A stretch of 64,000 bases of DNA from an uncultured virus (IMG/VR IMGVR_UViG_3300031687_001200) (IMGVR_UViG_3300031687_001200); one strand, 5' to 3'. Shown: positions 33,371 through 61,164, counted from the first letter of the stretch. Made by a program: numbers and translations. The notes: generated by a model from the sequence alone, not told the origin.

Positions 33371-33670
33371 ATGGCTAAAGAGGCAGTAAAAACAAGAACG
33401 TCAACGGAACTTCGATATCCTTCCAGATTTAATGTTGTTATATATAACGATGACTTTACTCCTGTAGAGTTTGTTATAACTTTGTTAATAGAGATATTTA
33501 ATAAAAATATTTCTTCAGCAAAAACATTAACGCAAACCGTACATTCAGACGGACAAGCAGTAGCCGGAACATATAACTCAGAGATTGCTGAACAGAAATG
33601 TTTAGAGGCAGTTGCAGTATCCAGATCAGCCGGGCATCCTCTACAACTTAAAGTTGAAAAAATAGGATGA
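33371..33670 (+). CDS. clpS: Clp protease adaptor ClpS
   Basis: [33 protein letters not shown]. Confidence 0.93.
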
Positions 33671-35124
33671 GCATTGATAACCTCAATACTAGCAAATACG
33701 AACAAGGCTTCGATACTAAAGTAGAAGCGGACAGTTTGCCGCCTGGATTAGATGAAGAAACTGTAAGAAAGATTAGTGCTATTAAAGAAGAGCCAGAATG
33801 GTTACTGGACTTCAGATTAAAAGCATTTAAGAGATGGCTTACTATGGACGAACCTAATTGGAGTGAGCTAACTTATGTGCCTATTGATTACCAAGCACTT
33901 AGTTATTACTCCGCACCTAAGTTTTTTGAAGAAGGTGATATTCCACAAGAGATTTTAGATACGTTTGAAAAGTTAGGTGTCCCATTACACGAACGTGATG
34001 CATTACTTGGTTTAGATACAACTAAAACTGTAGACGAAAGCAAGATCCCATTAGTAGCCATTGATGCAGTATTTGATAGTGTTAGCATCGCTACTACATT
34101 CCAGAAAGAATTAAAGAAACACGGTATTATATTCAGTAGTATCAGTGAAGCAGTAAAAGAACATCCAGAACTAGTTAAGCAGTATTTAGGCACAGTTGTA
34201 CCATACACTGACAACTACTTTGCTACACTGAACTCTGCGGTGTTCACAGACGGTACATTTGTATACATTCCACCTGGCGTTAGATGTCCTATGGAGTTAA
34301 ATACATACTTCCGTATTAATGCTCGTAACACAGGACAGTTTGAACGCACACTTATTGTAGCAGATGCAGACAGCTTTGTTAGTTACTTAGAAGGTTGTAC
34401 AGCGCCAGCATATGATGAGAACACCCTACATGCGGCGGTTGTGGAGCTCGTAACACACGATAGAGCAGAGATCAAGTATAGCACAGTACAAAATTGGTAT
34501 GCTGGAGATGAGAATGGTGTGGGAGGAGTTTATAACTTCGTGACCAAACGAGCCATGTGTAAAGGTGTAGACAGTAAAGTAAGTTGGACTCAAGTTGAAA
34601 CAGGTAGTGCTATCACATGGAAGTATCCTAGTTGCATACTTAAAGGCGATGGTAGTATCGGCGAGTTCTTCAGTGTTGCAGTTACCCAAGGTAAGCAACA
34701 AGCAGATACTGGCACCAAAATGATACACTTAGGAAAGAACACAAAGAGTACTATTATATCCAAAGGCATTAGTTTTGGAGATAGTACAAACACATATAGA
34801 GGATCAGTCAAAGTAAATCCTGGTGCTCACAATGCTCAGAACTTTACCAAGTGCGATAGTTTAATGTTGCAAGACAGTAGAGCATTAACCATCCCTTACA
34901 TCACATGCCAAAATGATAGTGCTAAGATAGAGCATGAAGCAAGTGCTGGAAAGATTAGTGAAGAGCAATTATATTATTTACAAAGTAGAGGTCTCAGCGA
35001 AGACGATGCTATGAATCTAGTTGTTAATGGATTCTGCAAAGATGTATTCCAAAAGTTACCATTAGAATTTGCCGCAGAAGCAAATAAACTATTAAGTGTA
35101 ACACTGGAAGGCGCAGTAGGATAA
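33667..35124 (+). CDS. sufB: Fe-S cluster assembly scaffold SufB
   Basis: [64 protein letters not shown]. Confidence 0.97.
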
Positions 35125-35127
35125 ACA

Positions 35128-35156
35128 TTGACAACAAATAACAAAGGTAGTACAAT
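35128..35156 (+). promoter_or_regulatory. internal sigma70 promoter giving predicted leaderless sufC
   Basis: TTGACA-N17-TACAAT then 6 nt to ATG, no SD. Confidence 0.65.
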
Positions 35157-35162
35157 ACACAC

Positions 35163-35861
35163 ATGCTAAAATTAAAAAATTATACAGTTGAAGGAATATT
35201 CGAAGATGTTAGTTTAACATTTGAAGCTGGCAAAACTTATGTCATAATGGGCAGTAACGGTGTAGGCAAAAGCACACTGATACACAGTCTAATGGGTAAG
35301 CCAGGACTACCAGAAGCAACTGGTTGTGCAAGTTTTCAAGGTAGCGATATTAACGCACTAGAAACAGACGAACGTGCTAGACTAGGCATGTTTGTAGGAT
35401 TCCAAGCACCAACAAGTATTCCAGGTCTAAGTAACTTTCAATTTATTAAACAAGCAACTGGTCTTAAAGTAACAGACATCAAAGAGTCTTTAGGCAAGTT
35501 TAAAGAATTCGCTAACACATTAGGTTTACCAAATGATTGGGATAAACGTAATCTTAACACAGATGCAAGTGGCGGCGAAAAGAAAAAGAACGAACTAATC
35601 CAAATGCTAATGATGAATACAAAGTTAGCAATGTTAGATGAACCTGATAGTGGACTAGACGTAGACGGAATTAAAGCATTAACATCAGAACTAAATGCAT
35701 GGCGTACAGAAGACAATACTTTGATTGTAGTAACACATTACGACAAACTAATTACAGGATTGAATCCTGACGCTGTTATTGTTTTACAAAAAGACGGCGC
35801 TATTAAAGGTGACCAAACTTTAGCAGACAAGATTTTTGCTGATGGGTTCGAAGGTGTATAA
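35163..35861 (+). CDS. sufC: Fe-S assembly ABC ATPase SufC
   Basis: GSNGVGKST, SGGEKKKNE, LDEPDSGLD, VTHY. Confidence 0.93.
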   Translation: MLKLKNYTVEGIFEDVSLTFEAGKTYVIMGSNGVGKSTLIHSLMGKPGLPEATGCASFQGSDINALETDERARLGMFVGFQAPTSIPGLSNFQFIKQATGLKVTDIKESLGKFKEFANTLGLPNDWDKRNLNTDASGGEKKKNELIQMLMMNTKLAMLDEPDSGLDVDGIKALTSELNAWRTEDNTLIVVTHYDKLITGLNPDAVIVLQKDGAIKGDQTLADKIFADGFEGV

Positions 35862-37128
35862 AACTTTATTCGGGCAATCACTGTTAAGCCAGCAAACCAA
35901 TGCAGAAGAGTTCCATAAATTAGAAGACTATGTTGATTACGTTACCTCTAATAATTTTATAGATGAACTACCACACTCTTACTGGGCCAATATACTCCCA
36001 CAGTTAAAAAAGACGTATGAGACTAACATACTATCTTTAAAGGATACTGGACTACCTACTAAACGTAGTGAGCAGTTTAACTTTGCAAACATACATAAAC
36101 TGTATGATATTGATATCCTAAGTGCTGAATCAGATAAAGATAGTTATGACGTTATAGAACGTTTTAGTTATTTGAACGGTAAGACTAAGTCTATTGTATT
36201 AAACGACAGCAGAGTATTTACATCAAATGATTTAGGTAAACGTAGTCCGTTTAACATACAGATATTAGATAGTGTTAATACTAATAAGAACAGACAAAGC
36301 GAATATGTAAAACTACTAAAGCAACAAGATAACTTTAGTAAAGTAACATACGCTCTTTCACCTTTCCCTAACATAATTATATTCCCTAATGGTAGTAACG
36401 ATACGTTTAATAAAAATCCTGTTACAGTCCAGTATAGGAACAGCAGTGATGAACCTAGACTAGAGTGCAACACAACTATTTTTGATGTACAATACAATGC
36501 TAAAGTACATTTAAAAGAAGATGTTAAAACTACAGCAGGACAAATGAATTACAGCATGTATGTTCTTAGAGAAAACTCAGAACTAACAATAGAGCGAACA
36601 ACAAACGATTACGGTGGATGGAATATATTTGATAGTGTATTCATTTGCCACCCTGGAAGTAAACTAACAGTTAAGTTTACAAACACAGGAAGCCAGTACA
36701 CACAAGAAAACTTTTACATTGATAGTAGCAGTAAAACCTCAGTTGAAATTATTGGCAGAAACGAAATTTATAAAGGCAATCAGTATCACCAATATGTGTA
36801 TCAGAAAAGCAATGATCCTGATAACTATAGTTGTATTGATATTCGTAATGTTGGTAAAGAATATGCATCAACTAGTTTTATAGGCAGGTATGATGTTGGA
36901 CCACTAAGCACAGACTTTGATGGTACAATGAACAACCAGAATTTAATGCTAGATAAAAATGTTACTATGCATACTAGACCAGTATTAGATATCCATACAA
37001 AAGAAATCAAGTGTCAGCATGGTTGCACCGTTAGTAATGTTAACGAAGACCATATGTATTATTTACAAAGTAAAGGTGTTGATAGAGTAACCGCATCAGA
37101 GATGCTAATAGAGAGTTTTTTATGTTAA
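35836..37128 (+). CDS. sufD: divergent SufD
   Basis: GLPTKRSEQF, QNLML, TRPVLDI..IKCQHGCTV..YLQSKG; position between sufC and sufS; true start may be GTG 35854. Confidence 0.8.
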   Translation: MLMGSKVYKTLFGQSLLSQQTNAEEFHKLEDYVDYVTSNNFIDELPHSYWANILPQLKKTYETNILSLKDTGLPTKRSEQFNFANIHKLYDIDILSAESDKDSYDVIERFSYLNGKTKSIVLNDSRVFTSNDLGKRSPFNIQILDSVNTNKNRQSEYVKLLKQQDNFSKVTYALSPFPNIIIFPNGSNDTFNKNPVTVQYRNSSDEPRLECNTTIFDVQYNAKVHLKEDVKTTAGQMNYSMYVLRENSELTIERTTNDYGGWNIFDSVFICHPGSKLTVKFTNTGSQYTQENFYIDSSSKTSVEIIGRNEIYKGNQYHQYVYQKSNDPDNYSCIDIRNVGKEYASTSFIGRYDVGPLSTDFDGTMNNQNLMLDKNVTMHTRPVLDIHTKEIKCQHGCTVSNVNEDHMYYLQSKGVDRVTASEMLIESFLC

Positions 37129-38354
37129 GAGTATATCCCAAAGCGAAACAGATTAATGAAATTAGGAATTGTTTTCCTAGTTTAGCATATACTGAATTAG
37201 CATATTTAGATAACGCCGCCAGTTCACAAACTGTAGACAGTGCAATTAAGGCTGTGAGTGATTATCATTATAACTACAGAGCCAATGTGCATAGAGGTGA
37301 TTTTTATACTAGCGGAATTGCTAGTGAGAAGTTTGACCAAGCAAGAGAAGAAGTTGCTAAACTAATTAACTGCGACATATCTGAGATTGCATTTACGGCA
37401 GGCACAACAGATGGCTTAAATATTATAGCAGATTTTTTAAATGACGACAGAACAGTAATACTCACAGAGCTAGAACATCACAGCAATATCCTTCCTTGGA
37501 TGAAGCATGACAAAACTGCAAAAAACGGTAAGTTAGTTATAGTGCCAGCAAGTGATCACGGTGATGTAAGTATAGCAGATTTCCAAAGAGCAGTCGAAAA
37601 TAATCCTGGGAGTGTTGTATCGTTTCTAACACAAAGTAATTTAACTGGAATGAACACACCATGGCAAGAAATGGTACGCATTGCTAAAGCAAATGATTGT
37701 GAAGTTGTTATAGATGCTTGTCAAAGTATTGCACACAAACAAATTGACTTACAAGCAAACAACATTGACTGGCTGGTATTTAGTGGACATAAGATGTATG
37801 CTAGTACAGGATCAGGTGTGTTGTTTCATAGAGGCGGATTTAGTGAAGTACATGGACACGGCTTAGGTGGTGGAACTGCTGAGTTTGTTAGTTTCGACGA
37901 ATACAATTTGCATGGAGACTTTGAACGTATTGAAGCAGGTACTCCAAACGTAGCAGGCGTACACAGTATTGGCGCCGCGGCAAAATGGATTAATGAAATT
38001 GGATACAAAACTATACAAGAGAATGAAGCAGAGTTTTTTAATATGCTTAGAGACAAAGGATTGTTTGAGATTGAAGGATTAAAACTTATTGGACCGTTGG
38101 GACCTAGAAGCGTTTATAGTTTTGTAACAGAAATGTGTAACCCTAGCGACTTAGCAGGATTTTTAAGTTTCGATAAAGTATGTGTAAGGACGGGCCATAT
38201 GTGTGCCCAGCCTGCCAGTAGGCGTTACAACAACAAAGAAACTGGTGTATTCAGAGTTAGCTCTGGCCCATACAATAATGAATTAGACTGTGTTAAATTA
38301 GTGGAGGGAATATGGAAAGCGGTAGACAAGATGACAGCCTCGAAGACCAAATAG
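37122..38354 (+). CDS. sufS: cysteine desulfurase SufS
   Basis: YLDNAASSQ, ANVHRG, EHHSN, FSGHKMY, EAGTPN, RTGHMCAQP. Confidence 0.93.
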   Translation: MLRVYPKAKQINEIRNCFPSLAYTELAYLDNAASSQTVDSAIKAVSDYHYNYRANVHRGDFYTSGIASEKFDQAREEVAKLINCDISEIAFTAGTTDGLNIIADFLNDDRTVILTELEHHSNILPWMKHDKTAKNGKLVIVPASDHGDVSIADFQRAVENNPGSVVSFLTQSNLTGMNTPWQEMVRIAKANDCEVVIDACQSIAHKQIDLQANNIDWLVFSGHKMYASTGSGVLFHRGGFSEVHGHGLGGGTAEFVSFDEYNLHGDFERIEAGTPNVAGVHSIGAAAKWINEIGYKTIQENEAEFFNMLRDKGLFEIEGLKLIGPLGPRSVYSFVTEMCNPSDLAGFLSFDKVCVRTGHMCAQPASRRYNNKETGVFRVSSGPYNNELDCVKLVEGIWKAVDKMTASKTK

Positions 38355-53730: not shown

Positions 53731-53773
53731 GACTATAAATACTACTACACATACACATACACAGGAGAAATAT

Positions 53774-55448: not shown

Positions 55449-55748
55449 ATGGGAATATTTAAATGGATCGCTTCATTTTTTACATCACCATCACCAGCCG
55501 AAGTTGTTACAACTAAATCTGCTCCTGCACCAGCCCCAAAGGTTGTTAAGGCAGTAGCACCGGTAAAAGCAGTTAAGAAAACTGTTGCACCGAAGAAAGA
55601 CGTTAGCGTAACTAAGGCAAGTTTGAGCAAACTTACTAAAGCACAGATAGAAGCTGAAGGTAAGAAGTTCGGACTCGATGTTGACAGAAGAAAAACTAAA
55701 GCAGATATTATTACAGAAGTATTAGCCGCATCTAAAAAAGCAAAGTAA
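55449..55748 (+). CDS. small basic protein with C-terminal helix-extension-helix (Rho-N/SAP-like)
   Basis: LSKLTKAQIEAEGKKFGLDVDRRKTKADII. Confidence 0.6.
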   Translation: MGIFKWIASFFTSPSPAEVVTTKSAPAPAPKVVKAVAPVKAVKKTVAPKKDVSVTKASLSKLTKAQIEAEGKKFGLDVDRRKTKADIITEVLAASKKAK

Positions 55749-55778: not shown

Positions 55779-57665
55779 ATGAAAAAGAAAATTGTTTTAG
55801 TTCAACCTAATTTTAAGATAGGTGGCGGTAGTTTTACCGGTTATTGGTTACCGTACTCTGTAGGTTGTCTTTGGAGTTATGCAAGTCAGCACTCTTGGGT
55901 AACAGACGAATTTGAAGTACAAGACATAATATATAAGAGAGAAGCGCCTGAACAACTAGTTGATAGATTACTAGATTGTACAGTAGCGTTTTTCTCTTGT
56001 TATATGTGGAATTGGGAATACAACAAATACATAGCCAAAGAACTAAAAAGACGTAACCCAGCGATTGCGATTGTATTCGGTGGACCACAAGTTACAACAC
56101 GCCCTAAACAGGAAAAATTCTTCCTAAATCATCCATATGTAGACAGCATTAGCCTTACCGAAGGGGAAGAATCCTTTGTGGCTATACTTGATGCATTAAG
56201 GAACGACAATGCTTTACAAGACGTCTACGAGGGTCTAAGGCTAGATGATTTAGAGGTACCTAGCCCTTACTTAACTGGCGTATTCGACAAGATTATGGCA
56301 GAGTCAGACCCTAACGAACAATGGAACGGCACACTAGAAACTAATAGAGGCTGTCCGTTTGCATGTACTTTTTGCGATTGGGGTAGTTTAACGTATGCTA
56401 AAATTAAGAAGTTTCCTATGCCTAAAGTGTTACAAGAGTTAACATGGATGGCAGAGAACAAGATAGACTATGTTACTATTGCTGACGCAAACTTTGGTGT
56501 GTTCACAGACAGAGACTTAGAAGTAACTAACACACTTGTTGACTTACAAAACACATACGGTTATCCAAAAGTTGTGGATGCTACATGGTATAAGAACAGT
56601 AGCGATGAAATATTAGAGATTGTTAAGAAGTTTATTAGCAGTGGATTTAATAGAGGACTAACATTAAGTGTGCAAAGCATGGACATGGATGTTCTAGAAG
56701 AGATTAAAAGACGTAACATGGAAATGTCAGACTTAACTATGATTTTTGACAAGTGTAATAGAGAAGGCATACCAAGTTATACAGAACTTATTTTAGGCTT
56801 ACCACTAGAAACATTTGAATCTTGGAAGTCAGGACTATGTGAAGTTATTAAAGCAGGACAACATAATGCTATTGAAAGTTGGTTAGCACAGATGTTAGAA
56901 AATGCACACATGAACTTACCAGAAGAAATTGAGAAGCATGGTATAACTACAGTTGTTGTGGAAAACTATGTTAGTGGATTCGAAGAAGAAGACAACATAC
57001 CTGAAAAAGTATCATTAGTTACCGGCACAAAATATATGCCTAAACCAAAGTTTATTGACAGTTGGTTATATGCATGGGTAGTTAACAACTTCCATAATTA
57101 TGGTTGGAGTCAAGCACTAGCAAGAGTTATATATAAATTGAATGGTACTGAGTATGAAGAAACATACGATAAAATGTATCAAGCATGTATAGACGACACT
57201 GGCTTAGTTGGTGACCTATTCCGTACAGCTAAAGAACAACTTACATATTACTTAGAGACAGGTAGAAGTGATGGCGAAGGAAGAGAAAGCTTCAGTGGGC
57301 ACACATTAATGTGGGAAGCTCAAAAAGACTTTCACTTGAATAGCAACGCAGTTAAGTCGTTTGTAAAAGAACACATGACTCCAGAGTATTGTAACATGGA
57401 TCCTGTTATGTACCAATACCTATTAGAATTTCAATCCAACTATACAACTGAAGAAAGCACAGACTATCCATTCCAATCAGCACCCGGTTTTAATTTTTAT
57501 GAATACATAAACAACATAGAGCCAGAGCTAGTAATGACACTAGAGCCTTACCAATTTAACATAGCAGAAGATGTTAAAGGTGATGAATATTACAATCGAC
57601 TTTACTTTAGACGTAGACAAGGTTGGGGCAAAACAATCATTGGCAAAAAACTCACTATAAGTTAA
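55779..57665 (+). CDS. B12-binding domain radical SAM protein
   Basis: FSCYMWN, VFGGPQ, EGEE, ETNRGCPFACTFCDW, DANFG, ELILGLP. Confidence 0.9.
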   Translation: MKKKIVLVQPNFKIGGGSFTGYWLPYSVGCLWSYASQHSWVTDEFEVQDIIYKREAPEQLVDRLLDCTVAFFSCYMWNWEYNKYIAKELKRRNPAIAIVFGGPQVTTRPKQEKFFLNHPYVDSISLTEGEESFVAILDALRNDNALQDVYEGLRLDDLEVPSPYLTGVFDKIMAESDPNEQWNGTLETNRGCPFACTFCDWGSLTYAKIKKFPMPKVLQELTWMAENKIDYVTIADANFGVFTDRDLEVTNTLVDLQNTYGYPKVVDATWYKNSSDEILEIVKKFISSGFNRGLTLSVQSMDMDVLEEIKRRNMEMSDLTMIFDKCNREGIPSYTELILGLPLETFESWKSGLCEVIKAGQHNAIESWLAQMLENAHMNLPEEIEKHGITTVVVENYVSGFEEEDNIPEKVSLVTGTKYMPKPKFIDSWLYAWVVNNFHNYGWSQALARVIYKLNGTEYEETYDKMYQACIDDTGLVGDLFRTAKEQLTYYLETGRSDGEGRESFSGHTLMWEAQKDFHLNSNAVKSFVKEHMTPEYCNMDPVMYQYLLEFQSNYTTEESTDYPFQSAPGFNFYEYINNIEPELVMTLEPYQFNIAEDVKGDEYYNRLYFRRRQGWGKTIIGKKLTIS

Positions 57666-57694
57666 CACATCTTTTAATATTGTATAAATACAAC

Positions 57695-57897
57695 GGAAGT
57701 TAAGCAATCCCCCTTCCACAAGAGGACGGTTGATATAGGTGTCGGTTGTTCCGGTGAGTATCCGGTGTAGTTTCGCAATATGACAGACAGCATTACGAGC
57801 CTATGAGTACTATAAAAGTTAAGGAACTTTAACCCCTCAGCATTGTCCGTAAGGAGATGTGAATTTGGGTGCTAATTAAAATATTAGACTCAAGGAG
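57695..57897 (+). ncRNA. candidate ~200 nt multi-stem structured RNA/leader
   Basis: After TATAAATA; nested stems GGACGGT/ATTGTCC, ATAGG/CCTAT, TGTCGGTTG/TGACAGACA, CCGG-TGAGTAT-CCGG, AAAGTT/AACTTT, TTGGGT/ACTCAA. Confidence 0.5.
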
Positions 57898-57903
57898 AGT
57901 AAA

Positions 57904-58080
57904 ATGACAAGTATTATTTTAAATACGAAGTCATTCTTTCAAAATATTGCAAACAGTTGGACCGGATTCAAAGACAATTATTGTCCTGAAGGTCAAACTT
58001 GCAATGACATTGCTACTATAGGTGGACTTATTTTCACTGTATGGTTTATGTACATTGCTATGGAACCAATACTGAGATAG
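57904..58080 (+). CDS. 58 aa small membrane protein
   Basis: Not in track; AAGGAG RBS; MTSIILNTKSFF...CPEGQTC..IGGLIFTVWFMYIAMEPILR. Confidence 0.6.
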   Translation: MTSIILNTKSFFQNIANSWTGFKDNYCPEGQTCNDIATIGGLIFTVWFMYIAMEPILR

Positions 58081-58143
58081 AATTAGACTGAATATACTAT
58101 AACTATAAAACATGAATATCTTTAGGATATTCTCCCAAGTTTT

Positions 58144-58172
58144 AGGGTTCGCGGTTGCGGACCCTTTTTTTT
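58144..58172 (+). terminator. rho-independent terminator
   Basis: AGGGTTCGC-GGTT-GCGGACCCT followed by T-tract. Confidence 0.85.
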
Positions 58173-58262
58173 GGCTAAAATTTGTATAAATACTTACTCT
58201 ATAAGGACTCGGAGTCTTTTTGAGAAAACAAACACAGTAGGATGTGTACACAGGAGTAAAGT

Positions 58263-59054
58263 ATGGGATGGTTAGCAAATTGTTCTGAGTCAGAACGTGC
58301 CAGCATTTTGGCAAAACTGGCAGGTAGAGCTTATCTAAATGAAGCGGAATTAAAAGCCACAGAAAAAACATTAAAGATGCAAAGGTCGAAAGCAAAATTT
58401 ATTAAAGACGGAGACGCAGAAGCGTGGGTATTTATTACTCGTGACGATGCTATTATTGTAAGTTGTAGAGGAACAGAGCCAACTAAGTTCAGCGATATAC
58501 TAGCAGACTTAAAAACAATACCAGTTAGGCACCCTAGGGCCGGAAGAGTGCATCAAGGATTCAAAGAGTATTCAGATTTAGTATTCGACGAAATTGTAAC
58601 ACATGTTAAGAAAATGCGTAAGAAAGACGAAAACGTATTTGTGGTAGGGCATAGTTTAGGTGGAGCGATGGCAGTACTAGTAGCAGAAGGATTATCTGAT
58701 GCTGGCGTACCTGTTAAAGAGCTAAGAACATTTGGTCAGCCTAGAGTAGGAAATAGAGCATTCAGAAGACATTTAGAAGGTTGTGATATAGGACGTTATA
58801 TACGTTATGTTAATAATAACGATATAGTACCTAGTGTTCCACCTTCAGCATTTGGCTTTGTACACGGCGGTAACTTGCATTACATAAACAGTTGGGGTCT
58901 TATTAGAGACATGACTGTATGGCAAAGAATGAAAGATGGTTGGAGAGGATTTTGGGCGGCTTGTAAGCAGTTTAAATTCTTTGATTTTGTAGCAGATCAT
59001 GGCATGCCTAATTATGTAGAGAAGTCCGGTAACATTGCTAAGTTGGATAAATAG
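58263..59054 (+). CDS. class 3 lipase
   Basis: RGTE, VHQGF, GHSLGG, TFGQPRVG, DIVP, DH. Confidence 0.9.
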   Translation: MGWLANCSESERASILAKLAGRAYLNEAELKATEKTLKMQRSKAKFIKDGDAEAWVFITRDDAIIVSCRGTEPTKFSDILADLKTIPVRHPRAGRVHQGFKEYSDLVFDEIVTHVKKMRKKDENVFVVGHSLGGAMAVLVAEGLSDAGVPVKELRTFGQPRVGNRAFRRHLEGCDIGRYIRYVNNNDIVPSVPPSAFGFVHGGNLHYINSWGLIRDMTVWQRMKDGWRGFWAACKQFKFFDFVADHGMPNYVEKSGNIAKLDK

Positions 59055-59082
59055 TATAGTAATATATTACGGAGATATCAAG

Positions 59083-59247
59083 ATGGTAGAGTATATCAAA
59101 AATAGAATTAAAGAAAGAACTAGTTGGGATGGTGGTGTTATAATCGCTATGTCTCTAGCAATAATCTTGTTCGGTGGTCTTGTTAAAATAGCGGCGTGGG
59201 CCGGTTTAGCATATGGCATCTGGGCAATAGTACAAAAAGAGGATTAA
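59083..59247 (+). CDS. small membrane protein
   Basis: GGAG RBS; ERTSWDG followed by two hydrophobic segments. Confidence 0.6.
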   Translation: MVEYIKNRIKERTSWDGGVIIAMSLAIILFGGLVKIAAWAGLAYGIWAIVQKED

Positions 59248-59814: not shown

Positions 59815-60201
59815 ATGCACAAAGAAGAAGACTTACAGTTTCTAAACGAGTTAGAACCTAGCGAACTTTACGATTATATCGTAGAGCGTGGGGACAACAT
59901 AGTTGAGTCCAAAGAGGACCTTACAGCACTATGCACAAACGAACATAGAGTGTATGGCTGTCAAAGCCTTGTGTGGGTTGCAAGAAACGATAACGACTGG
60001 CAATGGGAAAGTAATGCATATTTTGTGCAAGGCTTAATTAACATTGTTATGACTCATGTAGTTAACATGACAGATGAAGAGATTGCTGAACTAGAGTTAA
60101 GCAAATTTGAATTTATTTGTGGTGAGAAAGTAACATGGGGAAGGGTAAGAGGCATTGAAAGTTTCTTGCAAAAATTAAAAACAATAGTAACGGAGAAATA
60201 A
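59815..60201 (+). CDS. sufE: Fe-S assembly sulfur acceptor SufE
   Basis: RVYGCQSLVW, S.A.FVQGL, R.RG; promoter 59780-59808. Confidence 0.82.
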   Translation: MHKEEDLQFLNELEPSELYDYIVERGDNIVESKEDLTALCTNEHRVYGCQSLVWVARNDNDWQWESNAYFVQGLINIVMTHVVNMTDEEIAELELSKFEFICGEKVTWGRVRGIESFLQKLKTIVTEK

Positions 60202-60789
60202 ATGAATTTTGTACCATATGTAATAGAGAAGACATCACAAGGCGAACGTAGTTACGACATCTACAGTAGATTGCTCAAAGAAAGAATAGTATTTTTAAAT
60301 GGTGAGGTGAACGATGCAGTATCAAATAGTATTTGTGCTCAGTTCCTATTCCTAGAAGCAGACGATCCTGACGCTGATATTAATTTTTACATTAACTCTC
60401 CTGGTGGAGCAGTAACTAGTGGCATGGCTATATACGATACTATGCAATACATTAAACCCGCTGTAAGCACTATTGTAATGGGACAAGCGGCTAGTATGGG
60501 TTCATTCCTTGCTAATGCTGGCGCTCCTGGTAAACGTTTTATGTTACCTAATGCTAGGCACATGATACATCAGCCATTAGGCGGTGCAAGTGGACAAGCA
60601 AGTGACATTGAAATCCGTGCTAAAGAGATTGTTCGTATTAAGAAAGAACTTACTGATATATACGTTAAGCATAACAACAAGGGCAAAACTTACGAAATAT
60701 TTGAGAAAGCTATGGATAGAGACAACTTTTTGTCCAGTTCAGAAGCACTCGAAATGGGCCTTGTTGACGAAATTATTGAACAAAGATAG
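60202..60789 (+). CDS. clpP: Clp protease proteolytic subunit
   Basis: [32 protein letters not shown]. Confidence 0.96.
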
Positions 60790-60801
60790 ATAAGTAATAG
60801 T

Positions 60802-61164
60802 ATGGAATTATTAAAAACATTCAATCCAGACAACGTTATTACATTTACAGAATCTGCAACAGAACATCTAGTATCACAGGTAAAAGCCAGTGAAGGCGCA
60901 ATTGGTGTAAGTCTTGGGCTAATGCCTAATGGCTGTGCAGGGTTTGAATACAAATGGGATATAGTTACTGAAGTAGAAGACGGTTATAAAGAACACATGA
61001 TAGGTCCTTACTTGTTTCTGTTAGATGAGAAAAGTGAAGACTTCCTTGCAGGCAGTGAAGTAGACTTAGTTAATGAAGGATTAAAAGGGAAGACACTAGT
61101 AGTTAAGTCTCCAAAAGCATCCGGAGAGTGTGGGTGCGGGGAGTCGGTAACATTTGATGTCTGA
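60802..61164 (+). CDS. sufA: A-type Fe-S carrier (SufA/IscA/HesB)
   Basis: GCAGFEY, CGCGES. Confidence 0.88.
   Translation: MELLKTFNPDNVITFTESATEHLVSQVKASEGAIGVSLGLMPNGCAGFEYKWDIVTEVEDGYKEHMIGPYLFLLDEKSEDFLAGSEVDLVNEGLKGKTLVVKSPKASGECGCGESVTFDV

Follow-up and report, generated by a model that had tools for sequence, protein, structure and literature searches.

A 208-nt leader RNA is encoded on the plus strand of a 64,000-nt stretch of DNA from an uncultured virus (IMG/VR IMGVR_UViG_3300031687_001200; the whole stretch is called the window below), where it precedes the gene of a 58-aa putative membrane peptide. Comparison with related sequences makes it nearly certain that this leader is real and belongs to a new family of structured cis-regulatory leader RNA. 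In particular, it is the covariation across relatives, and not the stability of the fold, that exceeds chance. The function proposed here, whose chances are about even, is that the RNA forms the 5' leader of a self-contained and probably late phage transcript and acts in cis as a translational toggle, within an uncatalogued family carried by uncultured marine T4-related giant phages. Large, well-folded RNAs of unknown job are rare, and most new riboswitch classes started as orphan motifs. With its clear covariation, competing pseudoknot and unchanging hairpin, the leader lends itself to direct tests of how RNA exerts control in uncultured giant phages, and it draws attention to a small conserved membrane protein whose production these phages go to some lengths to control.

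Covariation and the fold of the leader

Taken alone, the leader of the window folds no better than its shuffled versions, with a minimum free energy (MFE) of -47.7 kcal/mol against a mean of -48.45 (standard deviation 4.44), corresponding to a z score of 0.17 on the plus strand and of -0.42 on the minus strand. The comparative fold has an energy of -45.6 kcal/mol in the window, a cost of about 2 kcal/mol over the MFE, and this small difference is the reason why single-sequence prediction missed it.

Relatives were collected along several routes. Scanning viral contigs with the peptide yielded 3 loci at first and then 28; DNA patterns taken from the conserved part returned 11 and then 27 viral loci, 4 chance hits included, and a metagenome scan with a DNA pattern produced at least 120 stretches. 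The 175 pattern-bearing loci were reduced to 145 by requiring an ATAAATA box no more than 220 nt upstream together with a Shine-Dalgarno sequence (SD) and an ATG downstream, and these correspond to 88 distinct leaders, 163-233 nt long, from viral and metagenome contigs. A MAFFT alignment of 47 representatives was the basis of a covariance model (213 positions, 51 pairs) that recovers 88/88 leaders at 111-198 bits and finds exactly one site in the window, at 57684-57906.

The structure was drawn from visible compensatory changes and then checked in three ways. In the MAFFT alignment of the 47 representatives (<88% identity), 88.8% of the cells are paired, as compared with 35-47% after a shift of the partners by 1-3 columns; both sides have changed in 36 of 54 pairs, and 0/500 shuffles reach any of these measures. 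The model-fitted alignment of all 88 leaders leans towards the covariance model, and the plain MAFFT alignment gives the same picture: after fitting, 93.3% of the cells are paired versus 33-47% when slid, compensatory double changes are seen at 38 of the 51 pairs, and the covariation score is 0.376 versus 0.03-0.06. Moreover, a blind mutual-information scan of all column pairs ranks those of the structure at the top. G-U pairs are frequent (two of the pairs, for instance, show them in 32 and 25 cells) and would be A-C on the other strand, thus assigning the RNA to the plus strand.

The leader is restricted to phages, and it is abundant in ocean viral sequence, as judged from the number of metagenome stretches. 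Among prokaryotes, represented by one genome from each of 185,579 species, 11 matches to the RNA pattern were found, all at chance level (16-25 bits versus 111-198 for members), and a peptide scan of prokaryotic genome contigs gave two spurious hits. A scan for the locus with the peptide subgroup alignment A6 returned already known loci only, and the locus had no blastn match among 50,697 phage records.

The elements of the leader, together with the start of the gene that follows, are these:

57695-57717, plus strand: P1, the 5'-terminal hairpin GGAAG/CTTCC (57695-57699 with 57713-57717); 99.5% of cells paired, 3/5 pairs compensatory
57704-57710, plus strand: P1 loop GCAATCC, the pseudoknot partner
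57722-57729 (GAGG-AC-GG) with 57833-57838 (CCCCTC), plus strand: P2; outer 4/4 and inner 2/2 pairs compensatory, 92.6% and 80% paired
57735-57804, plus strand: P3, the variable domain; basal stem 57735-57744 with 57796-57804, middle stem 57745-57750 with 57786-57791
57751-57765, plus strand: P3a hairpin; 98.9% paired, 4/4 pairs covarying, missing in 44/88 members
57814-57831, plus strand: P4 hairpin AAAAGTT-AAGG-AACTTT, with GGA in or beside the loop; 6/6 pairs invariant in 88 sequences
57841-57859, plus strand: P5 hairpin CATT[G]TCC-GTAA-GGAGATG, with bulged G and GNRA loop; 7/7 pairs compensatory, 99.0% paired, top mutual-information pairs
57865-57893, plus strand: P6 hairpin TTGGGT[G]CTAAT...ATTAGACTCAA, with bulged G, flush with the SD; 94.5% paired, 5/9 pairs compensatory
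57894-57897, plus strand: Shine-Dalgarno GGAG, directly 3' of P6
57904-58080, plus strand: 58-aa peptide gene, with N-terminal helix, CPEGQTC turn and C-terminal hydrophobic helix

P2 closes a three-way junction of P2, P3 and P4. The basal stem of P3 is 94% paired and covaries at 6/6 pairs, and in short forms of the family P3 is a single hairpin. The linkers read ACAA after P1, AG between the 3' strand of P2 and P5, and UGAAU between P5 and P6; the junction bases ACAA, UUG, GAGC and GUGAA are conserved amid freely covarying helices. A sequence-only reading of the window had noticed a GC-richer leader, which is indeed present up to the ATG at 57904, and had named seven stems. Five of them recur in the comparative fold: GGAAG/CTTCC is P1, ATAGG/CCTAT the base of P3, CCGG-TGAGTAT-CCGG is P3a, AAAGTT/AACTTT is P4, and the hairpin ending at the SD is P6. 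The other two, GGACGGT/ATTGTCC and TGTCGGTTG/TGACAGACA, are paired in 59.5% and 50.4% of the cells, respectively, and were abandoned, the bases of the former being shared out between P2 (GAGG..GG/CCCCTC) and the 5' strand of P5. The same holds for two copies of TGAGTA that had been likened to paired T-loops, as the second copy (57804) lies in a stretch that is mostly gapped in alignments A3 and A4 and is not a family feature.

Every other helix covaries while the sequence of P4 stays fixed. When the three inner pairs of P4 were left free in a rescan, 47 loci were found, of which 21 are true members by the model, and 21/21 have the same P4, as do the 16 loci with a leader that were reached by way of the peptide alone. 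Both the P4-relaxed pattern and the peptide-based search agree with the set collected with the exact hairpin. Such constancy suggests that P4 is recognised by its sequence and not by its shape only.

Competing pairings before the start codon

All 88 leaders have GGAG or GAGG 5-11 nt (mostly 6-7) before the ATG, the SD having been a requirement for their selection. Directly upstream, P6 shows an invariant U-G(bulge)-C-U-A beside a variable loop. The 5' strand of P6 with its bulged G (57867-57872, GGGTGC) is complementary to the P1 loop. Over 16 target types the loop and this strand vary in concert; in DNA letters, GCAATCC is matched by GGGTGC, CATTGG or TACTAG by CTAGTG, CATCC by GGATG, CACAACGC by GCGAGTG, and CACTTC by GAAGTTG, among others. 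The duplexes of cognate P1 loops and P6 5' strands have a mean energy of -6.33 kcal/mol versus -4.42 (standard deviation 0.18) for permuted partners, with 0/10,000 permutations as good, and the test was also run on the 47 representatives. Two controls showed no effect, namely the loop against the 3' strand of P6 (-2.36 versus -2.33) and the reversed target (-3.92). In fixed columns the pseudoknot helix is 81.4% paired, as compared with 32-56% when slid.

The lower stem of P6, in which compensatory changes are found at 3/4 pairs, shares bases with the pseudoknot, thus making the two pairings mutually exclusive. They are also near equal in energy, at about -6.0 kcal/mol for the lower P6 stem and about -6.3 kcal/mol for the pseudoknot. 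As the same bases form this supported stem, the pseudoknot, probable as it seems from the alignments, is rated less firm than the nested helices. A variant pair of loci (L238:175-389:+ and L239:262-476:-) has lost the loop and the 3' strand of P6 and has kept a perfect 6-bp pseudoknot pair (-7.7). The strand freed in these two (TGCTTT) can pair instead with the SD region GGAGGCA. Alternative pairing of pseudoknot and P6 is present in the family; pairing of the SD by the freed strand is possible only in L238/L239. An anti-SD or anti-start partner was sought in eight leader segments and none was found beyond P6, and the cognate complementarity of the initiation region to P1 and P2 is lower than in permuted pairs. 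Control by simple SD masking or by attenuation is unlikely because the SD has no conserved partner and no terminator follows P6; the stretch upstream of the SD is, for this reason, the lever that remains.

In the standby-site view of initiation, a single-stranded stretch before the SD raises ribosome loading. A translational toggle between pseudoknot and hairpin, a proposal that could equally well prove right or wrong, would exploit such a stretch. The 5' strand of P6 would switch between two exclusive partners, the 3' strand of P6 and the P1 loop. In the ON state, the P1 loop would capture the P6 5' strand and leave about 20 A/U-rich bases before the SD single-stranded, allowing ribosomes to load well; in the OFF state, P6 would be formed and its 11-bp helix would abut GGAG, with poorer loading as the predicted outcome. 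The compact junction domain may set the balance between the two states, and the invariant P4 would be the likeliest docking site for a trigger, be it a small ligand or a protein. The 5'-terminal hairpin P1 probably stabilises the mRNA too. The L238/L239 variant, in which a hairpin containing the SD is the alternative to the pseudoknot, fits the pseudoknot as the ON state. Fold, competing pairings and coupling to the SD and ATG of a single gene can be read from the aligned sequences, and from these we infer the action in cis on translation of the peptide.

A number of observations weigh against this toggle and against the late phage unit in which it is placed. Support for the pseudoknot comes from duplex energies with a variable register; fixed columns give double changes in only 2/6 of its pairs, since the register shifts between lineages, and one loop group pairs better with other targets than with its own. 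In typical members no conserved partner sequesters the SD or the start codon, complementarity of cognate sequences even tends to be avoided (z +2.5 and +5.6), and P6 lacks a T run behind it. A classical expression platform is therefore missing, and how large an ON/OFF effect might be is conjecture. The main search patterns demanded an exact P4 and so biased the leader set, and the invariance of P4 could also reflect a signal at the DNA level. As for the promoter class, the base preceding ATAAATA is G in 75 of the 88 leaders (T in 10, C in 3), and not the T of a late promoter, and a -35-like TTAACA lies upstream. Finally, the peptide can apparently be expressed without the leader, as 10 of its 26 true relatives in viral contigs have none and stand directly behind another gene, which makes the leader an add-on of one phage lineage.

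Possible triggers and known leader RNAs

The whole window, compared with Rfam 15 at gathering thresholds, contains only two tRNAs. In the region 57500-58300, E<=10 admitted two chance matches and, on the terminator, a suhB-like match that stays below threshold (24.3 bits, with 41 as the gathering score), and eight diverse relatives gave three chance matches at E<=1, all in L069. The cobalamin riboswitch (RF00174) and its AdoCbl variant (RF01689) matched at none of these three settings. The leader thus shows no cobalamin or other family match. The sequence-only reading had likened the CCGG arm to P5 of that riboswitch and had pointed to a B12-dependent gene upstream. The unit does sit between a radical SAM gene (55779-57665), with B12-binding and Radical_SAM domains, and a class-3 lipase gene (58263-59054). 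These domains and the resemblance of the CCGG-loop-CCGG arm are all that favours a cobalamin riboswitch variant tied to the radical SAM gene, an idea that deserves next to no credence: the arm is P3a and is lacking in half of the members, the leader lies downstream of the radical SAM gene behind its own promoter, the gene it would control is that of the peptide, and L004/L016/L017, L024, L025 and L029 have no radical SAM gene upstream. In its logic the leader shares with the cobalamin riboswitch, which has a kissing loop between an aptamer loop and the expression-platform hairpin, the pairing of a loop of the sensor domain with a hairpin beside the ribosome-binding site; unlike it, the leader has no sequence or model similarity, no B12 box and no conserved gene link. 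The first observation was largely right, and its B12 interpretation is wrong.

As far as the sequence goes, the proposal of a new riboswitch-like class has held up, in view of the multi-helix fold, the heavy covariation and the lack of an Rfam 15 match. That the leader is a riboswitch for a small molecule or ion is a tentative possibility: the junction domain (P2/P3/P4 with P5 docking) would be an aptamer for a host metabolite, and the ligand would shift the balance between pseudoknot and P6. The architecture is aptamer-like in combining a pseudoknot and a GNRA loop with a multi-helix junction whose conserved bases stand amid covarying helices, and marine riboswitch candidates offer precedents, namely the Downstream-peptide motif ahead of short unknown ORFs and manA and wcaG of T4-like cyanophages (PMC2864571). 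Yet the invariant part is a whole regular hairpin, P4, and not junction bases alone, no SD-sequestering or terminator platform is present, and the downstream gene gives no clue to a ligand. The fuller proposal of a new riboswitch class found only in marine giant T4-related phages, with junction and P4 sensing a host metabolite or ion and the toggle timing a tail-anchored membrane peptide late in infection, must be called doubtful. If a phage riboswitch with such a toggle were true, the phage would read host physiology directly with RNA.

A further reading is that of a protein-binding operator. A host or phage protein might recognise the GGA of P4, the bulged-G stem of P6, or both, and block or aid ribosome entry at GGAG in a CsrA-like manner, a reading by analogy that is on the whole unlikely. 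Regulators of the CsrA type bind GGA in a hairpin loop and GGA in the SD, and the leader resembles CsrA/RsmA targets in its invariant P4 loop region AAGGAA and its SD GGAG, a likeness of sequence only. All members have a GGA at the loop of P4 and another in the SD, P6 keeps its invariant bulged motif, and P4 is unchanged in 88/88 leaders and in 21/21 from the relaxed search though the other helices covary. However, no CsrA-family gene (PF02599) was found in the two virus records that carry the leader, G001 and G002, which are partial (30% and 66% complete), and the elaborate covarying fold exceeds the needs of a hairpin-binding protein.

The RNA might also have no trigger at all. Type I toxin mRNAs (hok, tisB, zorO) have structured 5' untranslated regions (UTRs), and by analogy the leader could be constitutive, protecting the 5' end and delaying, through slow refolding, a potentially membrane-damaging peptide; this, too, is not a likely account. 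The leader is like such mRNAs in being long and folded, with alternative pairings and a gene for a small hydrophobic peptide; a hairpin stands at the predicted 5' end, the two competing pairings are equal in energy, and the unit has its own terminator. Unlike them, it belongs to what appears to be a lytic-phage transcript and has no antisense or small RNA partner found at the locus, where no opposite-strand TATAAATA box occurs and sigma-70-like matches are not above chance (6 versus 3.5, standard deviation 1.9); nor is its peptide known to be toxic. The invariance of P4 would also be left unexplained. A dual-function RNA, in which a transcript of about 480 nt acts in trans through its 5' domain and also encodes the peptide, is very improbable. 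It would suit a monocistronic unit with its own promoter and terminator and the single leader that precedes a different open reading frame (ORF), at least 90 aa long with a signal-peptide-like start (L180, 267-468, minus strand). Against it, 87/88 leaders are coupled to one peptide family, and no conserved single-stranded seed is evident except the P4 loop. The independent noncoding RNA that the sequence-only reading had offered as another option is unlikely for the same reason, as 87 of the 88 run into the SD and ATG of the peptide.

Among described RNAs, the closest in arrangement are the Downstream-peptide motif and manA/wcaG, whereas in logic it comes nearest to type I toxin leaders and to riboswitches with loop-to-platform contacts; the leader is a member of none of these. 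The Downstream-peptide motif is outlined as a marine structured 5' UTR before short conserved ORFs (17-100 aa) of unknown family, likewise backed by synonymous changes (PMC2864571). As with Downstream-peptide/glutamine-II (RF01704) and glnA RNA (RF01739), so far as they are described, a short conserved ORF follows the leader. The likeness is one of arrangement only, as the leader has no match to these models, is about three times larger with six helices, occurs in phage records only and precedes another peptide family. The candidate cis-regulatory 5' UTR RNAs manA (RF01745) and wcaG come from marine T4-like cyanophages, according to the same outline (PMC2864571); unlike them, the leader has no model match, differs in fold and is tied to a single peptide gene and not to metabolic genes. 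A full-text literature search found no description of the leader motif. In summary form, a screen of IMG/VR intergenic regions for covariation lists 8,495 unnamed and mostly uncharacterised DNA-virus RNA candidates of 29-151 nt (Fremin, Bhatt, Kyrpides 2023; PMC10690425), and part of the leader may be among them, the comparison having been made by description and not by sequence.

The transcription unit, its peptide and the virus

The sequence-only reading had described a self-contained unit of promoter, leader, ORF and terminator, and each of these parts is in place. On the plus strand the order is the TATAAATA box, the 208-nt leader, GGAG, the ATG at 57904, the 58-codon ORF to 58080 and the terminator, and the elements outside the leader and the ORF are as follows:

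57662-57677, plus strand: palindrome TTAAC-N6-TTTAA (TTAAC-N6-GTTAA in the family), just upstream of the promoter box
57683-57690, plus strand: promoter box TATAAATA; family consensus NATAAATA
58144-58172, plus strand: intrinsic terminator with a 9-bp stem (58144-58165), 6 GC pairs, and a T run to 58172

The ATAAATA box stands 4-6 nt ahead of the first P1 pair in 88/88 leaders, its mere presence in all of them not being independent as it was required for their selection. The full TATAAATA box has the sequence of T4 late promoters and may be one, and the start of the RNA is placed near P1 from the box-to-start spacing of T4, so that the RNA probably begins with P1. The unit is monocistronic, with a transcript of roughly 480 nt that is probably late, and a terminator-like element follows the ORF in 62 of the 66 relatives having enough downstream sequence. 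A palindrome of the form TTAAC-N(4-9)-[GT]TTA[AG] is found in 57/88 unique loci, starting 22 nt before ATAAATA in 47/57, and could be an operator or a -35-like element. TG is frequent just before the box, and the region can thus also be read as a -35-like TTAACA with an extended -10. A second TATAAATA box lies at 58185-58192, 78 nt ahead of the lipase gene, and further boxes are found at 53734, 62573 and, on the minus strand, 6406, each 32-42 nt before an ORF start, consistent with a promoter motif used by the source phage.

An ORF of 43-67 aa from one peptide family, reached straight via SD and ATG, follows 87/88 leaders. The peptides share CxxGxxC in 74/88 cases and a hydrophobic helix that extends almost to the last residue. 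Differences at the third codon position (117,059) outnumber those at the other two (86,642 and 68,443), and single-base codon differences are synonymous in 33,333 cases versus 26,901 non-synonymous ones, a pattern that marks the ORF as coding. An AF2 model places helices at residues 3-26 and 30-57 (pLDDT 70.6). The peptide had been called unannotated, and its family indeed has no match in Pfam, PHROGs or PADLOC; a homologue search returned 10 proteins, for which the only name given is 'hypothetical protein' (3/10), and the ESM Atlas gave no match of 0.9 or more. A lysis cassette of peptide and lipase was considered and rejected, as the genes directly downstream in L024 and L025 are those of SufE and ClpP, and a lipase is absent there.

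The source of the window is viral. The locus is found at 100% identity in virus record G001 (110 kb), and the related record G002 (250 kb) carries the leader and encodes a T4 Gp23-type capsid protein (270 bits); each of the two records holds one copy of the leader. Phage and auxiliary metabolic genes fill the window, among them those of Suf proteins, ClpP, a ClpX-like protein, peroxiredoxin, NAD synthase, endolysins and a baseplate lysozyme, and the best isolate matches are jumbo phages, among them Atu_ph07, to which the match in ClpP is at 67% identity. Genes for Fe-S cluster assembly form a large set at 33667-38351 and 59815-61164 (SufB/D-like proteins (phrog_12033), an ABC ATPase, a SufS-like protein, SufE and a HesB/IscA-like protein), accompanied by ClpP, the ClpX-like protein, peroxiredoxin, peptide deformylase and NAD synthase. 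Between the NAD synthase gene and either the leader unit or the radical SAM gene, a small Lys/Ala-rich protein (82-106 aa) without family is always encoded (55449-55748 in the window, L004:1003-1251, and ORFs after NAD synthase in L024 and L025). On the lipase side, a 70-aa ORF with a hydrophobic C-terminal half (59035-59247) overlaps the end of the lipase gene and has a relative in L002 (2665-2823), and L004 likewise shows several small membrane proteins clustered in this region. The two tRNA genes of the window are located at 644-717 and 1037-1118 (RF00005; 67.5 and 59.4 bits).

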